Counted from the stretch's first letter, positions 27,491 to 49,599 are shown. The stretch is 64,000 bases of DNA from Patescibacteria group bacterium (GCA_013387205.1 WARV01000008.1:128136-192135); one strand, 5' to 3'. Numbers and translations are program-made. Notes: generated by a model not told the origin, from the sequence alone.

Positions 27491-27605
27491 GTCATTGCGA
27501 GAAGCCCGCAGGGCGACGTGGCAATCTAATCCTAAATCGAGATCCTTCGGATGCACTCAGGATGACGCCTGTGGCGCCAGATCAGATGCATTCGCCCGCA
27601 ATGAC
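27491..27605. repeat. GTCATTGCGAG-family repeat, copy 2 (A + inverted B + inverted A-end), immediately upstream of adk start
   Basis: gtcattgcgagaagc...ggcaatc ; gagatccttcggatgcactcaggatgac ; ...cgcccgcaatgac. Confidence 0.7.
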
Positions 27606-31666: not shown

Positions 31667-32137
31667 CTACTAAATACTAATATTTACTAATAATACTAAA
31701 CTTAATTTTGTAAATTAATTATCCTTTTATATTTGACTCCTGTTTTTGTAAAATTAGCCAAAATACCTAATTTAATTTTTGCAGTTTTAATATAGTCGTT
31801 AACTTGCTTTATGTTTTTTAACCCAAAATTTTCATTTTTCTTAATCTCTAGTATTATCTTTGCGTCATTAATATCTATCAAAAAGTCAATATAGTATATT
31901 CCGATATATTTGCCTAAATAATATAGTTTTATCGGATATTGCTCAATAAAATTGATACCTGCAAATTTTAATGCCAATGAAACCGCTTTTTGGTAATGCC
32001 TTTCCAGTAATTCTCCACCCAATTCCTTAAAAACTTGATATAAAATCCCAATTATTTTATAGCACTCGTCTTTATAAATAAGATCTTTACGGTGCATTTA
32101 TTTTTAGTACTTTTAGTAAATTTTAGTATTTAGTAGT
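31667..32137. mobile_element. ~471-bp unit: GxxExxY-family gene bounded by 33-bp imperfect terminal inverted repeats
   Basis: left ctactaaatactaatatttactaataatact (31667..31700) vs reverse complement of right agtacttttagtaaattttagtatttagtag (32106..32136), ~30/33 match; extremely AT-rich. Confidence 0.55.
31702..32097 (-). CDS. GxxExxY-family protein (PD-(D/E)XK nuclease-like fold)
   Basis: ECYKIIGILYQVFKELGGELLERHYQKA N-terminal signature resembling TIGR04256 GxxExxY; 131 aa. Confidence 0.6.
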   Translation of the reverse strand: MHRKDLIYKDECYKIIGILYQVFKELGGELLERHYQKAVSLALKFAGINFIEQYPIKLYYLGKYIGIYYIDFLIDINDAKIILEIKKNENFGLKNIKQVNDYIKTAKIKLGILANFTKTGVKYKRIINLQN

Positions 32138-32262
32138 AAACAAAAATACAAAACCCCAGAATTCAACCGCCGATGAAATCAGCGACTAAATTCTGGGGTC
32201 CTGGCGAACATTTCGCTTGTTAAAGCAAAAAATTCGAAGCCAAGACGTTTCCGTCCCAGACT

Positions 32263-32554
32263 CCCCGCCCTTCAGATTGCATTCAAAGACTAAACTTTAA
32301 TCTCTTTCTCAGCTGGCTCCATGAACTACCGTATTGTTTCAGCTTTCTTTCCCGAATCTTTGCGTCTCGGGATTCAGCAAATGCCTCGTAATACACTAAT
32401 CGATAGGGAGCATATGCTTTGGTAGATTGGACTTTGAATGCATTATGTTCAGAAAATCTTTGTTTAAGATCGGTTGATTCACCGATATACGTATAGTCTT
32501 CTTTTAGACTTTTGATTACGTAAACATAATGCATATGCAATCTGAAGAGCGGGG
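32263..32554. mobile_element. ~290-bp unit: GIY-YIG gene bounded by 17-bp terminal inverted repeats CCCCGCYCTTCAGATTG / CAATCTGAAGRGCGGGG
   Basis: ccccgcccttcagattg at 32263..32279 and caatctgaagagcgggg at 32538..32554 (16/17 complementary). Confidence 0.5.
32283..32534 (-). CDS. GIY-YIG nuclease-domain protein
   Basis: YVYVIKS...YIGESTDLKQRFSEHN GIY-YIG motif; ~84 aa; start taken at ATG 32534 (track uses TTG 32540). Confidence 0.75.
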   Translation of the reverse strand: MHYVYVIKSLKEDYTYIGESTDLKQRFSEHNAFKVQSTKAYAPYRLVYYEAFAESRDAKIRERKLKQYGSSWSQLRKRLKFSL

Positions 32555-32738
32555 CTTTTTATCCGGTATTCCTCTAGAAAATACCAGACTATTTCTTTAT
32601 TTGTTTCAAACTCCCCGGTTGGTAGCCGGATCAAAGCTTGAAGAACTGAAATTATTATAACACAATTTTAAGATAGTTCAATATCAGTTTTCCACAATAG
32701 ATTTTTGGCTTAAATAAGCCAATAATAACCATATACTA

Positions 32739-32767
32739 TTGACATAATTGCCTAAATAGCCTATAAT
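32739..32767 (+). promoter_or_regulatory. consensus sigma70 promoter TTGACA-17-TATAAT
   Basis: ttgaca taattgcctaaatagcc tataat; shares 13-mer ttgacataattgc with 49150. Confidence 0.6.
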
Positions 32768-32802
32768 TACGCCACGTATTATATTCCATAGGAGGAAACA
32801 AA

Positions 32803-32892
32803 ATGCGACTCTTCAACGGACCGCCCACGCAGTCCAACTTCACTCACAATTACTTTTCCTTGGCTTCCACGTCCGAGTCCGCGAAAAACTGA
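32803..32892 (+). CDS. 29-codon ORF with strong SD at 5' end of GC-rich transcript (MRLFNGPPTQSNFTHNYFSLASTSESAKN)
   Basis: aggagga 7 nt upstream of ATG 32803; TGA stop 32890..32892. Confidence 0.3.
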   Translation: MRLFNGPPTQSNFTHNYFSLASTSESAKN

Positions 32893-33410
32893 CCGCCGGC
32901 GCCGGCCGCGAACCAGTTGAGCAGTGATCGAAAGGAGAAAGATGGACAACTGGCATCCTACCGGTTTTACCTAGACACTGCTGCAGTCGGCAGTGTCAAC
33001 CAAGAACCCTCTTGCCGGGCAATTTCCTGCCCGCCGGCCCGCCCGCGAAAATTTCACGGCTGCGCGGCTACAAGCCTGGCAATACAAACGGGGCGACGGC
33101 CTGAGACCTTATGGTCAATACTTTGGCCGCCTGCCAATACATCGTTCCATCGTTGATGTTGTTGTTACGCCAGCGAGCGGCGACAGGACATGCGATTAGA
33201 CCAGAAAGTTTTGGCTCGGTACCGCACCTGCGCGCGCCATCATCCCCATGGGGATGATGGCATTGGGCTGGCGTTGGGCAGCGCGGGAGATATCCCTAAC
33301 ATTGCTGCCCAGAGTGGTACCCGCTATCTAGCGGGGATGTGTAGTACGCGGGGCCGCACCCCCGCGAAAGACGCCGGCCGGCGCATAAAACCCGCGCCGG
33401 CCCCAACAAA

Positions 33411-33449
33411 AGCCCCTAGGACCTAAAAATCCTGGGGGCTATTTATTTT
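33411..33449 (+). terminator. rho-independent terminator ending the GC-rich unit
   Basis: agcccctaggacctaaaaatcctgggggct (11-bp stem incl. one G-U) + atttatttt. Confidence 0.6.
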
Positions 33450-33552
33450 GTCATTGCGAGCGACTGAAAGGAGCGCGGCAATCTGTACATCAAGAGATTG
33501 CTTCCACCTTCGCTAAAGCTACGGCGGACAAGTCGGATGCACTCGTGATGAC
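33450..33552. repeat. GTCATTGCGAG-family repeat, copy 3
   Basis: gtcattgcgagcgactgaaaggagcgcggcaatc ... gagattgcttc...tcggatgcactcgtgatgac. Confidence 0.65.
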
Positions 33553-33584: not shown

Positions 33585-33613
33585 TGCTTATCTTTGACAA
33601 AATACAACAATTA
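33585..33613 (+). promoter_or_regulatory. sigma70-like promoter TTGACA-17-TAATAT
   Basis: ttgaca aaatacaacaattatct taatat. Confidence 0.5.
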
Positions 33614-33686
33614 TCTTAATATACGGGTGCTATTGTTTTTATACTGTCCTGATATTTTCGAAAATTTTGTCCCCTAAGGAGGGGGA

Positions 33687-33794
33687 ATGAATACATTTTG
33701 GTCGGTTTTTTTGCTTTTCGCTGTTTTTTTGATCTTACGGCACATGCTAACCCATGGCCGCAGAGGTCGCAAATGGTCAGGAATGATCACCTAA
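33687..33794 (+). CDS. 35-aa hydrophobic peptide with basic C-terminus (type I toxin-like small membrane protein)
   Basis: SD aaggaggggg then ATG; MNTFWSVFLLFAVFLILRHMLTHGRRGRKWSGMIT; one TM helix; too short for ORF track. Confidence 0.4.
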   Translation: MNTFWSVFLLFAVFLILRHMLTHGRRGRKWSGMIT

Positions 33795-33931: not shown

Positions 33932-33962
33932 AGCCGCCTCAGAGTAGCGAGGCGGCTTTCTA
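33932..33962 (+). terminator. terminator downstream of small peptide gene
   Basis: agccgcctcagagtagcgaggcggct + ttctaatt. Confidence 0.6.
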
Positions 33963-34040: not shown

Positions 34041-34115
34041 TTGGACAGATATGGAATAGGCGGTCAGATGACCGCCTATAAATCTTACATCTTATATCTT
34101 ACCTCTTATATCTCC

Positions 34116-37100
34116 TTATCCCACATCAACCATTGTTATCTCGTTCACTTCCCTCAAAGAAGACATTAGCTCTTCTGACATCCTGACTTTTGTCTGGGTC
34201 TTAATGTTTTTCGCGTTCGGCCCTGAGCCGAGCGAAATAAAAACTTGCGCATTGCCGGGATGCTTTTGTAAAATTTCTTTTATCTGGTTCAGTAATTCTT
34301 TGCTGCCCAAGCCCGTCATATGCAAAACCACGCGCTTGTTTTTTTCCATTTCAGACAAAGCCATTATATACAATTCATCATTCGGCAGCTCCCTTAATTC
34401 GTCAGCTATTAATTTAAATTCTTCGTCTTTATCGGACAGCCTTCCGCTGACTTGGACGATTTTGTCATTAGCTAAAAACGGCAAGGCTTTTTCCATCACT
34501 TTAGGAAAAACCAAGACTTCAATGTTTCCGCCTATGTCTTCCAATGTGAAAAACGCCATCGGGTCATTCTTCTTGGTTAGCGTGCGCTTAAGCCGGGAGA
34601 TAATCCCTCCCATGGTTTTGTATGTACCTAAGTCCTGCTGCGTAAGCTGCTTGACCGATGTAAAGCTTTTTAAAACCTGCTTGTAGCTGTCTAAAGGATG
34701 GGCTGATACATACATTCCCAAATGTTCTTTTTCCCATATCAGTTTTTCATCTTTGGTTGCGGGTACCGCGTCTTTCAATCTCAATTTTCCAATTTGCAAT
34801 GATTTCCCGAACAAAGAACTCTGCCCGGTGTTTTCCGCTTTAAAATGCTCGCGCATGAAATCCAAAACCTCTTCGGTGTTGGCCAAAAGCTGACCGCGCT
34901 CGCCAAAAGCATCCAACGCTCCAGCCTTGGCCAAAGCTTCCCAGGACTTCTTGTTCAAATTTTTGGTGTGCGCGCGAAGCAAAAAGTCTTCCAAATTTTT
35001 AAACGGCCCGCTTTCTTTTCTTTGTTCAATCGCTTTTAAAATAACATCGGAACCAAGATTTTTTATGGCGTTCAGGCCAAAGCGGATAGTTTTGTCGTCA
35101 ACCACGGTAAAATCGCCAAGCGACTCATTAATGTCCGGCGGCAAAACCGCAATACCCATATTCTCGCATTCTTCCACGGCAGCGTAAATTTTGTCTTCAT
35201 CGCCGCTTTCCGCGGTCATCAAAGCCGCCATGAACTCTACAGGATAATTCGCCTTCATGTAAGCGGTCTGGTAAGATACTACGGAATAAGACGCAGAGTG
35301 CGATTTGTTAAAACCATATGCGGCAAAAGGTTCAATCCAGGTCCAAACTTGGGTAGATTTTTCAAACGACCAACCAGCGGTTTTCTGGCAGCCTTCGATA
35401 AATTTGATTTTCTGTTTGGCCATTTCTTCAGGGATTTTCTTGCCAACCGCTTTGCGGAACTTATCCACTTCCTGCCAGGTATATCCGGCCAAATCGTGCG
35501 CAATAGATAAAAGATCATCCTGGTAAACCAAAACCCCGTATGTCCTGTGCAAGATTTTTTCCAAAGCCGGATCTAAATATTTTACCAACGAAGGATTGTG
35601 CTTGCGTGCGATATAATCGGGAATGAATTGCATTGGTCCCGGGCGATACAAAGCTATCATGGCCATGATATCAAAAATATTTGACGGCTTAAGTTCCTTT
35701 AAATACCTGGTCATGCCAGACGAGCCCATTTGGAACACGCCGAAAGTCAGGCCTTCGGACAAGAGCTTGAAAGTTTTCGGGTCAGGGTGGGGGAGATTGT
35801 AAATGTCTATTTTTACATTATGCCTGGCTTGGGCGATTTTTACCGCGGCTTCCAAAATGGACAAGTTGCGGATACCGAGCAAGTCCATTTTAATCACGCC
35901 AACGGCTTTGTTGTTGGCATTGACATCGAGCGCGTACATGTCGTATTGCGTGATAATGCGCTCGCCGTCCGGTTCTTTTTGAAGCGCCATGTAATCGGTC
36001 AACGGAGTCGGAGTAATGACAATTCCGGCAGCGTGGACCGATGCGTGCCTGGCGCAGCCTTCCAGCTTTTTCGCGATTTCCAAAATGCGGTTGGTCTCCG
36101 GGTCGCGCTTGTAAATTTCGTTCAGCTCCTGGTTCATTTCCAAAGCTTTGTCCAAAGTCATGTGAAAACCCTGCTTGCCAATGGGAATCATTTTCGCGAT
36201 CTGGTCGCACTTGGAATAAGGCACGCCCAAAGCGCGGCCCACGTCGCGCACCGCGGCCCTGGCCATCATAGTCCCGAACGTGATGATCTGCGCAACTTTT
36301 TCCTTGCCGTACCTTTCGGTGATGTAAAGAATCGCCTCGTCGCGGCGGTTGTCAGCAATATCCAGGTCGATATCGGGCGGGGTGGGACGGTGCATGGTTA
36401 AAAACCTCTCGAACGGCAATTCGTATTCCAAAGGATCGACATTGGTAATACCCAAAACGTGCCCGACCAGGCTTCCGGCCGCACTGCCCCTGGTATTGGT
36501 AATCGCGCCTATTTTATGCGCGCCTTCCACAATATCCGCCACCATCAAAAAATAAGTATCAAAGCCTTTTTTGCAGATAATTTCCAGCTCGTAATCCAAT
36601 CGTTTTTGGATGTCTTCCGGCAGCACCCCTTCTTGTCCGTATTTTTCTACGGCTTTTTCCTGGGCTGTTTTCTTCAAAAATTCTTCCGAAGTGTAGCCTT
36701 TGGGGATTTCCACCCTTGGAAAATATCGTTGGTCGATTTTAATTTCCAAATTGCACAAATCGGAAATTTCCTGAGTGGCTGACAAAGCTTCCGGCAAATC
36801 GTAAAATAGCTCCTGCATTTTTTCCGCGGATTTCAACGAAAGATCATACGCGCGCATGTCCAACCGTTCAGTATCGGAAACCGTCCTGCCTGTGCCAATA
36901 CAAACCATCACGTCCTGCGCTTCGCTGTCTTCGGGATAAATATAATGGCAGTCAGCCGTAGCTACTGTCTTTAGTCCGTGCTTTTTGGCCGTGCTGGCTA
37001 ATTTTTCCACCAAAGATTCTTCCGCCTGGTCCTTGTTTCTGGCGTTCCTCTGCAGTTCAATGAAAAACCTTTCGGCCCCAAATATATTTAAATATTTTTC

Positions 37101-43072: not shown

Positions 43073-43996
43073 CTATATCTTTATTTCCGCATATCTCCAC
43101 TTGCCCGCGAAATCTTTGTGGAAATTTATTACTGCATTTGGCAGATTTTTTTTAATTAGATGATTTAATTCCTGCTTTTGTCTTGGATCGAATTCCAAAT
43201 AAACTAATTTTGGCTTGTTTTTTCTCTGCGCGATTTGCTCCAAAAGTTTTCTGATTAACACCAGCCCATTTTCTTTTGCAAAAATGGAATTTTTCGGCTC
43301 AAATTTTAAATTTGCTTTAAGTTTTTTATAATCACTAACTGGAACGTAGGGGAGATTGGCGATTATAATATCAAAATCTCCTTTAACATTTTTCAGTAAA
43401 TCGCTTTTTATGAATTGAATACCACTCACGCCAATTCTCCCATACGCTGGAGTATGGGAGTTTTTGGCTAAAATATTTTTAGCGTTCTCTTTTGCAACCT
43501 TCAAAGCTTTTTCTGATATATCTGATGCAACAATCCGCAATTCGTAATCCGCAATCCGAAATTCTTTCGCCAACGAAACCGCAATGCATCCGCTTCCTGT
43601 CCCAATGTCCAAAATTTTTACAATGTCATTGCGAGGAGCCAGGGCTTTATCTGGCGACGAAGCAATCTTTTCTTGGCTTGGTTTAGATTGCTTCGCTCGG
43701 ATGCACTCGCTCGCAATGACAAGGTCCACCACCATCTCCGTCTCCGGCCTGGGGATTAAAACATCCTTATTCACCTTAAACCTTAAGCCCCTAAAATCCT
43801 TGTATCCCAAAATATACGCAATCGGTTCGCCTTTAAGGCGGCGTTTAATGAATTTTGTTAAATTGTTATATTGTTTTTTTGTTAAATTGTAATCTGGATG
43901 CAAAAAAACAAACTCCTTGGGCTTTTTCAAAACATGCGCCAGCAGGAGTTCAATTTCTATTTTATGGTATTTTTTTAAAGCCACGCTGATTGTCAT
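43073..43996 (-). CDS. prmC: release-factor glutamine methyltransferase (PrmC/HemK) with in-frame repeat-element insertion
   Basis: PRPETEMVV, DIGTGSGCIAVSLA, NLPY(V) motif (ANLPYVPVSD); ~30 extra residues between PETE and DIGTG. Confidence 0.85.
   Translation of the reverse strand: MTISVALKKYHKIEIELLLAHVLKKPKEFVFLHPDYNLTKKQYNNLTKFIKRRLKGEPIAYILGYKDFRGLRFKVNKDVLIPRPETEMVVDLVIASECIRAKQSKPSQEKIASSPDKALAPRNDIVKILDIGTGSGCIAVSLAKEFRIADYELRIVASDISEKALKVAKENAKNILAKNSHTPAYGRIGVSGIQFIKSDLLKNVKGDFDIIIANLPYVPVSDYKKLKANLKFEPKNSIFAKENGLVLIRKLLEQIAQRKNKPKLVYLEFDPRQKQELNHLIKKNLPNAVINFHKDFAGKWRYAEIKI
43625..43720. repeat. GTCATTGCGAG-family repeat, copy 4, with perfect terminal inverted repeats GTCATTGCGAG/CTCGCAATGAC, inserted in-frame in prmC
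   Basis: gtcattgcgaggagccagggctttatctggcgacgaagcaatc...tcggatgcactcgctcgcaatgac; 96 bp = 32 codons (residues ~92-123 of PrmC). Confidence 0.65.
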
Positions 43997-45454: not shown

Positions 45455-45625
45455 ATTTTAATTGACAAAATTTAAAAAATTTAAATAATTGACATAATTA
45501 TTACTGCAGAATATTTTTGTTCATTTTTGTCATTTATGTCAATTTTGTCATTTCCCGTATTTTACCACACTCCCAACACAAAAGCATCCCCAAAAAGAGG
45601 ATGCTGATGTTTGATGATAAAACGT

Positions 45626-49101: not shown

Positions 49102-49149
49102 CTTATTTAAGGCTTTTTTCTAAATATTCGCATACTTATGCCAAATTCT

Positions 49150-49178
49150 TGACATAATTGCTGTTTTATGATAAAGTT
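49150..49178 (+). promoter_or_regulatory. candidate promoter (TTGACA-17-TAAAGT) sharing 13-mer TTGACATAATTGC with 32739 promoter
   Basis: cttgacataattgctgttttatgataaagt upstream of SD aggagga + ATG 49201. Confidence 0.4.
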
Positions 49179-49200: not shown

Positions 49201-49599
49201 ATGTCAGAAGAAAAGAAAGTTTACTATTACGACGAAGATGGCTTTGCGGCCACCTTCACTCTTGAGGAAGGAACTGTTACCAGGTTCTTCCCGCAAGACA
49301 AACGTCGATATGGCTTCATCAGTATGGACAACGGCCAGGAAGTATTCTTCCACACCATCAAAGCTAAATCCATGGGACCGTTTGAAACCCATCAAGAAGG
49401 ATGGATTCCTCGGTTCTTGGATCTTTTTGGCGAAAAGCCGATTGACGACCCCAAACCCGGCGACAGGCTCGTGTTCCTGACCCGCCAAGAAACAAAGGGT
49501 TTAGCCGCATGGGCATGGTCAACCCTCGAGAGGTACGAAGAAGCGGTTCGCGCTTGTACAGAAATTAAATCACTATCAACCTTTGCGCCATCAGCCTAA
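49201..49599 (+). CDS. hypothetical protein (GC-richer cassette, gene 1)
   Basis: SD aggagga; 132 aa; no family recognised. Confidence 0.45.
   Translation: MSEEKKVYYYDEDGFAATFTLEEGTVTRFFPQDKRRYGFISMDNGQEVFFHTIKAKSMGPFETHQEGWIPRFLDLFGEKPIDDPKPGDRLVFLTRQETKGLAAWAWSTLERYEEAVRACTEIKSLSTFAPSA

Follow-up and report, generated by a model that had tools for sequence, protein, structure and literature searches.

A predicted GC-rich, strongly folded transcript with a short open reading frame in the variable space between thrS and dnaE of a Candidatus Doudnabacteria genome

We analyzed a 64,000-nucleotide stretch of the genome of an uncultivated member of Candidatus Doudnabacteria (Patescibacteria/Candidate Phyla Radiation, CPR; GCA_013387205.1, WARV01000008.1:128136-192135), here referred to as the window, and within it a GC-rich predicted transcription unit at positions 32739-33449. 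The unit lies between two essential genes, in the intergenic slot that extends from the promoter of the thrS leader to the stop codon of dnaE. In the reading that we favor, at a confidence somewhat short of even and on comparative sequence grounds, it would be a lineage-specific, fast-evolving structured transcript of the small-open-reading-frame or dual-function type, belonging to an accessory small-gene slot and diverged from a peptide-operon unit, rather than a conserved non-coding RNA (ncRNA) family, a pseudogene or imported DNA. The promoter-proximal unit of the slot is kept here, with its promoter, accessible short open reading frame (ORF), hairpins and terminator, and the membrane-peptide gene is absent from it. 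Coordinates are those of the window, on the plus strand unless stated.

An earlier model-made description of this DNA (the sequence-only reading) had proposed a perfect promoter, a 29-codon ORF led by a Shine-Dalgarno (SD) sequence, many stable hairpins, stops in every frame and an intrinsic terminator, and all of these were recovered (Table 1). The promoter, P1, carries consensus hexamers at 17-nt spacing, and the terminator is a GC-rich stem-loop followed by a T-run, with 7 GC pairs among the 11 bp of its stem. An AGGAGGA SD at 32790-32796 precedes the ATG of ORF1 at 32803, whose 29 codons (32803-32892) would encode MRLFNGPPTQSNFTHNYFSLASTSESAKN. With the transcription start placed by inference near 32774, the unit would be self-contained and its transcript about 676 nt long, the use of promoter and terminator being predicted. 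Stops interrupt all six frames; across 518 nt of one plus-strand frame the only stop is a TGA, a scarcity without significance at such a GC content. A repeat-built element (REP, CRISPR or tandem units) was considered and rejected, the body holding independent hairpins only and no repeat families. The motif GCC[GT]G[GC]CAAT(ACA) occurs three times in the GC-rich body, at 33014, 33074 and 33129 (+), 55-60 nt apart, and could be a repeated protein-binding site or a product of chance.

GC content across the unit ranges from 0.545 to 0.645 (200-nt windows, 32800-33499), and the 33001-33500 bin, at 0.588, is the maximum of the 64-kb window (mean about 0.42). The elevation described earlier is real, at about 15-18 points rather than the 20 first estimated. 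No coding signal accompanies it: GC content by codon phase is flat in the body (0.613/0.613/0.593, against 0.49/0.34/0.55 in dnaE), and its period-3 power is 0.31, compared with 0.70 ± 0.41 in shuffled sequences and 2.5-5.0 in thrS and dnaE segments. The plus-strand RNA has a minimum free energy (MFE) of -281.8 kcal/mol, which relative to shuffles corresponds to z = -7.6 (20 shuffles) or z = -6.1 (40 shuffles), and the antisense strand folds more weakly (z = -4.5). Stability beyond that of composition-matched shuffles, and greater on the transcribed strand, is what is generally looked for in a structured RNA. Folding is unevenly distributed, the first 127 nt with the SD and ORF1 being unstructured (z = -0.2) and strong folding setting in directly past the ORF1 stop, with z = -3.2 for 32893-33010, -3.9 for 33196-33372 and -5.6 for 33340-33449, a segment of three successive stable hairpins of which the terminator is the third. 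As modeled, the unit is bipartite, with an open 5' module and a hairpin-array 3' module. Flat phase GC, low period-3 power, strong folding and the absence of any protein match all support the non-coding, structured candidate of the sequence-only reading; its second candidate, a small protein with a long structured 3' untranslated region, is viable and draws some support from the unstructured first ~127 nt with SD and ORF1.

The unit matched no known RNA or protein. No family in Rfam 15 reached its gathering score, a permissive scan returned only chance-level matches (best 24 bits, against thresholds of 49-178 bits), and ARAGORN detected no tmRNA in the unit. RNase P RNA, tmRNA and SRP RNA are absent, as had been suggested, and 6S, OLE, GOLLD, ROOL, HEARO and raiA were likewise unmatched. 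Analogous units of 14 related loci also had no Rfam match. The concatenated six-frame ORFs (477 aa) found no match at E <= 0.01 among 5.8 billion proteins, a tblastn search of the unit with 110 slot ORFs and 11 slot peptides of relatives gave noise only, and no plus-strand frame of the body contains a hydrophobic or transmembrane (TM)-like segment. BLAST of plasmid and phage records and exact-pattern scans of viral contigs and JGI metagenome contigs yielded no match to the unit. A CsrB-like sponge was rejected, since about 10 GGA motifs (counted by eye) against about 12 expected from composition represent no enrichment. The literature held nothing on GC-rich ncRNAs or on the thrS-dnaE locus in Patescibacteria.

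The host was assigned from DnaE-anchored loci; its own DnaE was found once among about 15 billion proteins, the next relative being 79% identical, which makes the species a singleton in that collection. Relatives were compared through 82 related loci comprising 1.5 Mb of dnaE-flanking sequence (labeled here by L numbers). Searches with blastn and nhmmer against 80 dnaE-anchored loci recovered no homologue of the unit. A covariance model of the single sequence of its densest domain (R1, 33196-33372) found only the window's unit itself in 1.52 Mb of related loci at default filters, and with filters off on four loci its best other match scored 13 bits on the wrong strand. Absence from closely related genomes, together with lack of expression there, had been named in advance as a sign against a genuine transcript; the region is missing from every available relative, but these are not close, with DnaE identities of 79% or less. 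For the proposal of a large structured ncRNA this means that "structured" holds and membership of a conserved class does not: with no Rfam match and no homologue in sequence or structure across 1.5 Mb, the unit is not a member of a known ncRNA family and is not callable as a new class.

In these genomes dnaE and thrS are in tandem; in the window, map, ftsW/rodA and small GIY-YIG and PD-(D/E)XK genes are also neighbors. The slot between dnaE and thrS is hypervariable, from 49 nt to more than 2.6 kb in about 55 species. Many distant species have slots of only 49-150 nt, those of the window's clade being 0.5-2.7 kb long; conservation is limited to 40-100 nt at the thrS side, and there is just one related pair among 110 slot ORFs of at least 60 aa. 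Typically the slot holds between one and three SD-led genes for small membrane peptides, encoded on the other strand from dnaE; two slots (L051 and L072) have other small membrane proteins, and that of L082, among the nearest relatives, is empty. The 35-aa peptide encoded downstream of the GC-rich unit in the window belongs to the slot's conserved peptide family, whose members are 30-39 aa long and have a TM helix at the N terminus followed by a basic tail; the family also occurs in L002, L011, L057, L058 and L062, often with a second TM peptide upstream. The family motif matched eight times in the six-frame translation of 1.5 Mb, six of these being 30-39-aa slot peptides, and the slot peptides belong to no Pfam or NCBIfam family. 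Their architecture resembles that of type I toxins, any toxicity being putative. Units with no credible ORF occur in the window, in L064 and probably in L018 (its second unit, L018b), and none of the nearest relatives (L081, L082, L051 and L072) has a GC-rich, ORF-poor unit.

High GC content and strong folding appear to be intrinsic to the transcripts of this slot. Almost all GC-rich, period-3-free islands in the 1.5 Mb lie in it (those of the window, L064, L003, L002, L057, L058, L073 and L011), and the remaining GC-rich islands look coding. Slot transcripts gave z = -7.8 (L011), -5.4 (L002), -4.6 (L058), -4.5 (L003), -3.8 (L073) and -2.9 (L057), and the window's own peptide unit gave -3.5, so that clearly coding slot transcripts are likewise over-structured; coding controls from the window ranged over +1.9, +0.3, -0.4 and -0.7. 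Since over-structure was present in every slot transcript tested, including the coding ones, GC content and folding are no mark of foreign DNA, and, being common to ordinary slot mRNAs, they are alone no evidence for a conserved ncRNA.

The promoter and layout of the unit also have counterparts in relatives. P1 lies about 20 nt past a conserved GGCTTA.ATAA.CCAA block, at the same place as the slot promoter in L064, L073, L056 and L002, some of which directly drive peptide genes; on this shared position P1 is positionally orthologous to the promoter of a small-peptide operon. The L064 unit copies the layout of the window's unit in unrelated sequence. It has a perfect promoter ending TATAATTAC, followed by AGGAGGAAAC and a 25-codon ORF1, and then an internal SD (GAAAGGAGAA) with a 13-codon ORF2, MKNETVGYSTGFL, which ends in TGFL, its 10-codon counterpart in the window ending in TGFT. 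Its first 127 nt are unfolded (z = +0.4) and lead into a GC-rich hairpin body (z = -5.0) and a terminator. Pairwise local alignments among the window's unit, L064 and L018b, scored against shuffles, detected no similarity (z about 1).

If the unit is a diverged small-ORF or dual-function transcript of the slot, P1 would fire strongly, and the unfolded state of the ORF1 region would allow its translation. Stabilization of the RNA against 3' exonucleases would come from the hairpin array and the triple stem-loops at the 3' end, and the hairpins and terminator, together with a second terminator at 33933-33961, would keep strong convergent transcription from running into dnaE. That the consensus signals are intact and the stems perfect favors maintained function or a very recent origin over long neutral decay. 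Activity could reside in the RNA, in the 29-aa peptide, in both or in neither. Several points weigh against this interpretation. Promoter and terminator were predicted by consensus, and the CPR organism is uncultivated; the absence of homologues leaves no alignment on which covariation or selection could be assessed. ORF1 and ORF2 have no convincing similarity to their L064 counterparts, which leaves their translation and function unsupported by conservation, and the likeness in layout between the two units could be coincidental. Equally, function could lie in the hairpin array as an RNA acting in trans, or the array could have none.

Decay of a multi-peptide operon is an unlikely alternative. 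Here the genes would have been lost, leaving transcribed GC-rich junk with the ancestral promoter, SDs and terminator. The unit does sit where relatives have a first peptide ("peptide A") and further ORFs, behind the orthologous promoter, and its internal SDs lead only to non-hydrophobic ORFs of 10-29 codons. Intact peptide mRNAs of the slot are also high in GC and strongly folded, and the gene of the second peptide ("peptide B") persists downstream with its own promoter, beyond the insertion of a miniature inverted-repeat transposable element (MITE). However, no relic of a slot peptide was found in any frame and no hydrophobic segment on the plus strand. A promoter matching at 12 of 12 positions, an optimal SD and many perfect stems, among them the 13+13 palindrome, would not be expected after neutral decay, and the folding z, rather than being eroded, is among the stronger values for the slot.

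It is also unlikely, in our estimate, that the unit is a trans-acting RNA whose hairpin body is functional, for example as a protein-binding or scaffold RNA or as an RNAIII-like regulator, with incidental or secondary ORFs and with L064 and L018b as positional orthologues. Such a function would fit the fact that the unit keeps its perfect promoter and clean terminator although the peptide gene downstream is equipped with a promoter of its own, and the three ORF-poor units share slot, orientation and layout. Their sense and antisense z values are -6.1/-4.5 (window), -5.0/-3.4 and -6.2/-2.8, and folding that is always stronger on the transcribed strand suggests structure at the RNA level, where G-U pairs count. 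The three units nevertheless lack sequence similarity, R1 detected nothing on the correct strand in relatives, and Rfam offers no match. The nearest relatives have no such unit, no complementarity to the adjacent peptide mRNA was detected, and neither a target nor a protein partner can be put forward.

A broader and rather improbable version of this idea is that the slot of this Doudnabacteria clade encodes positionally conserved but sequence-unconstrained, very highly expressed, GC-rich and hyper-structured bipartite RNAs, each with a tiny translatable ORF at the 5' end and a long hairpin-array module, that function as RNAs, the window's unit being the largest ORF-poor member and L064 and L018b further ones.

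We regard as quite improbable that a horizontally acquired high-GC fragment was caught between a native promoter and terminator, a candidate of the sequence-only reading that the comparison with relatives disfavors. GC content 15-18 points above that of the genome and a slot that is an insertion hotspot, with a MITE and GIY-YIG and PD-(D/E)XK genes nearby, would be in keeping with acquisition. Yet no donor emerged from phage or plasmid records, viral or metagenome contigs or the protein database, and the GC rise and over-folding recur at the slot in many species, in unrelated sequences and in native-looking peptide operons. Moreover, native signals bound the unit neatly, and its promoter is orthologous to those of relatives.

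Very little likelihood attaches to the RNA being an antitoxin for the adjacent hydrophobic peptide, or regulating it, as in type I toxin-antitoxin (TA) systems. The peptide, a TM helix with a basic tail from a conserved slot family, and the highly structured slot mRNAs would suit such a role, and in L002 a 101-nt terminated RNA from the P1 position precedes the peptide operon with borderline complementarity to it (equaled by 5% of shuffles). In the window, however, the duplex energies of the GC-rich RNA with the peptide mRNA, or with the ribosome-binding site of that mRNA, were no better than chance (28%, 21% and 76% of shuffles did as well), with no complementary run of at least 12 nt; the two units are in tandem rather than antisense, and the toxicity of the peptide is putative.

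A frameshifted pseudogene of a known protein, for which the single-stop frame of 518 nt might speak, is essentially refuted by the lack of protein similarity in six frames (such similarity being what the sequence-only reading had named as fatal to its own proposal), the lack of period-3 signal and negative recoding checks, and a chimeric assembly of the metagenome-assembled genome (MAG), judged together with it to be extremely improbable, is at odds with a 600-nt island inside a 192-kb contig flanked by matching native signals and is unlikely given analogous units at the same slot in independent MAGs.

Table 1. Features of the GC-rich unit, of the sequence around it in the window and of the corresponding slot in related loci
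Feature	Position	Strand	Remarks
P1 promoter, TTGACA-17-TATAAT	32739..32767	+	sigma-70-type; 12/12 consensus match
Unstructured 5' module: short 5' untranslated region, SD, ORF1	32774..32892	+	folding z = -0.2
GC-rich hairpin-array module, non-coding	32893..33410	+	GC about 0.60; no period-3; stops in all frames
Internal SD (GAAAGGAGAAAG) and 10-codon mini-ORF (ORF2), MDNWHPTGFT	32930..32974	+	
Palindromic hairpin GCCATCATCCCCA/TGGGGATGATGGC	33236..33261	+	perfect, 13+13 nt
Intrinsic terminator	33411..33449	+	GC-rich 11-bp stem (33411-33440), 8-nt loop, T-run
MITE-like element, about 100 nt	33450..33552		directly after the terminator of the unit; terminal inverted repeats GTCATTGCGAGCG...CACTCGTGATGAC
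P2, promoter-like, TTGACA-17-TAATAT	33594..33622	+	10/12; would serve the peptide gene downstream
SD-led 35-aa membrane peptide MNTFWSVFLLFAVFLILRHMLTHGRRGRKWSGMIT	33687..33794	+	TM helix and G[RK][RKP]G[RQ]xW tail
GC hairpin GCCGCCTC...GAGGCGGC	33933..33961		T-runs on both strands
Left boundary of slot: thrS promoter and divergent Thr T-box-like leader	32153..32725	-	promoter at 32681..32654
Leader specifier hairpin, loop CUACCAAC	near 32600-32640	-	
Leader core CUGGGACGGAAACGUC	32259..32244	-	
Leader terminator	32199..32153	-	
SD-led TM peptides in slot	L002, L003, L011, L057, L058, L062, L073, L081, L051, L072		

The sequence-only reading had also noted a 13-mer shared between P1 and a distant gene cassette, and TTGACATAATTGC does have an exact second copy at 49149-49161 (+). 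With 34 TTGACA sites in the window, a match of the 7-nt extension has a chance probability of about 0.002; P1 and the 49149 site have no likeness past the 13 nt. The 13-mer may represent a shared extended -35 context or an operator. Its second copy lies at the promoter of a gene at 49201-49599, which has a weak, sub-threshold match to the cold-shock domain. The window has four instances of the pattern TTGACATAA[TA]T, including 45489 (+) and 45530-45542 (-).

Downstream of the unit, the MITE-like element is one of several dispersed in the window (also at about 27491-27605, about 43625-43720, 3238 and 48568), with terminal inverted repeats GTCATTGCGAG...CTCGCAATGAC; nine occurrences of its terminal motif were found in the window against 1.3 expected. 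The GC hairpin beyond the peptide gene likely terminates the peptide unit and forms a barrier ahead of the dnaE 3' end (stop at 34116). Tandem repeats lie directly downstream of the dnaE stop in the window (34082-34113, ATCTTAC x4.6), and L081 and L003 have short tandem repeats resembling CTACAAGCTA or ACTACCAACT near theirs.

Further observations concern the slot in other species. In L002 (about 475-640 of the reverse-complemented 1300 nt downstream of dnaE), a perfect promoter is followed by the terminated RNA of about 101 nt (z = -4.0). This RNA immediately precedes the promoter of the peptide operon itself, in a position equivalent to that of the window's 676-nt unit; it is possibly the product of a small RNA gene. 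The slots of L008 and L021 encode, on the strand opposite dnaE, a homologous membrane protein of 83-84 aa that is His-rich at both ends (MSDHNHGHGNGHDHH...GDHGHH). Its gene has a perfect TTGACA-17-TATAAT promoter, and the protein may be a small metal-binding membrane protein.

At the left edge of the slot, the thrS leader looks like a divergent, Thr-specific T-box with a reduced Stem I. Across 23 aligned leaders the specifier loop CUACCAAC is near-invariant and its stem covaries freely; the loop contains ACC, a Thr codon. The core reads CUGGGACGGAAACGUC (UUGGGUGGAACCGUC in distant species), differs little from the canonical GGGUGGNACCGCG and precedes a long terminator and then thrS. The conserved leader measures about 270 nt, and that of L073 (14425-14700, +) folds at z = -6.8. 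Rfam RF00230 (T-box) does not score the leader, even at E <= 5. In the window an 85-aa GIY-YIG ORF (32540..32283, -) occupies the apical loop of a leader hairpin (32262-32553), with CCCCGCUCUUCAGAUUGCAU and AUGCAAUCUGAAGGGCGGGG as complementary arms on either side of it; relatives form a plain short hairpin at this place. A nuclease gene within a riboswitch-like leader is reminiscent of homing-endonuclease genes in intron loops. In addition, a PD-(D/E)XK_3 (PF13366) gene at 31702-32097 (-) lies between the leader terminator and the start of thrS (31658), an insertion that parts thrS from its leader in the genome of the window only.

Ultra-small CPR genomes are expected to purge non-essential sequence. 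Should the RNA be functional, such a genome would carry a large structured RNA that is strongly expressed and restricted to its lineage, and reduced episymbiont genomes would be seen to retain a rapidly innovating small-gene and RNA locus beside core genes. At present the predicted RNA is an orphan, a singleton seen in one MAG. The slot also provides a caution for screens of long GC-rich intergenic regions: high GC content and extreme folding are common to peptide mRNAs and ORF-poor units here, and because both kinds of unit share them, these criteria alone fail to identify a conserved ncRNA class.

Among known systems, the large structured ncRNAs OLE, GOLLD, ROOL, raiA and HEARO were found in long GC-rich intergenic regions (Breaker-lab surveys, PMC6429828, PMC11109978). 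The unit resembles them in its length of about 600-700 nt, its GC content above that of the genome, its non-coding body, its own promoter and terminator and its folding beyond shuffles. Those RNAs have many homologues, conserved nucleotides and covarying helices, whereas the unit has no homologue and leaves their Rfam models unmatched. Dual-function RNAs offer a second comparison: RNAIII of S. aureus is 514 nt long, forms 14 hairpins and encodes the 26-aa delta-haemolysin, and other examples are SgrS/SgrT and SR1/SR1P. A strong promoter, an accessible SD-led ORF, a chain of hairpins, a terminator and a similar length are all shared with the RNAIII type, but the likeness is architectural only, as searches for target complementarity were negative, the peptide lacks conservation and no regulatory context is apparent. 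Type I TA and small hydrophobic peptide loci include hok/sok, tisB/istR-1, ldr/rdl, aapA/isoA and fst. The slot recalls these in its SD-led 30-39-aa peptides with a TM helix and basic tail, its structured mRNAs and its hypervariability in presence, absence and copy number, but the GC-rich unit differs from them in having neither a hydrophobic peptide nor complementarity to the peptide mRNA, and no antisense promoter was seen. Finally, some eukaryotic long non-coding RNAs (lncRNAs) are conserved in position and unconstrained in sequence (PMC8564735). As in those lncRNAs, position, orientation, promoter and physical properties are kept at the slot while the primary sequence is unalignable; the slot differs in being bacterial, intergenic and part of a compact genome, and more frequently it contains small protein genes or nothing at all. 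On the broader, rather improbable reading given above, the slot RNAs would be the equivalent, in a reduced CPR genome, of fast-evolving lncRNAs, or else RNAIII-like dual-function RNAs.

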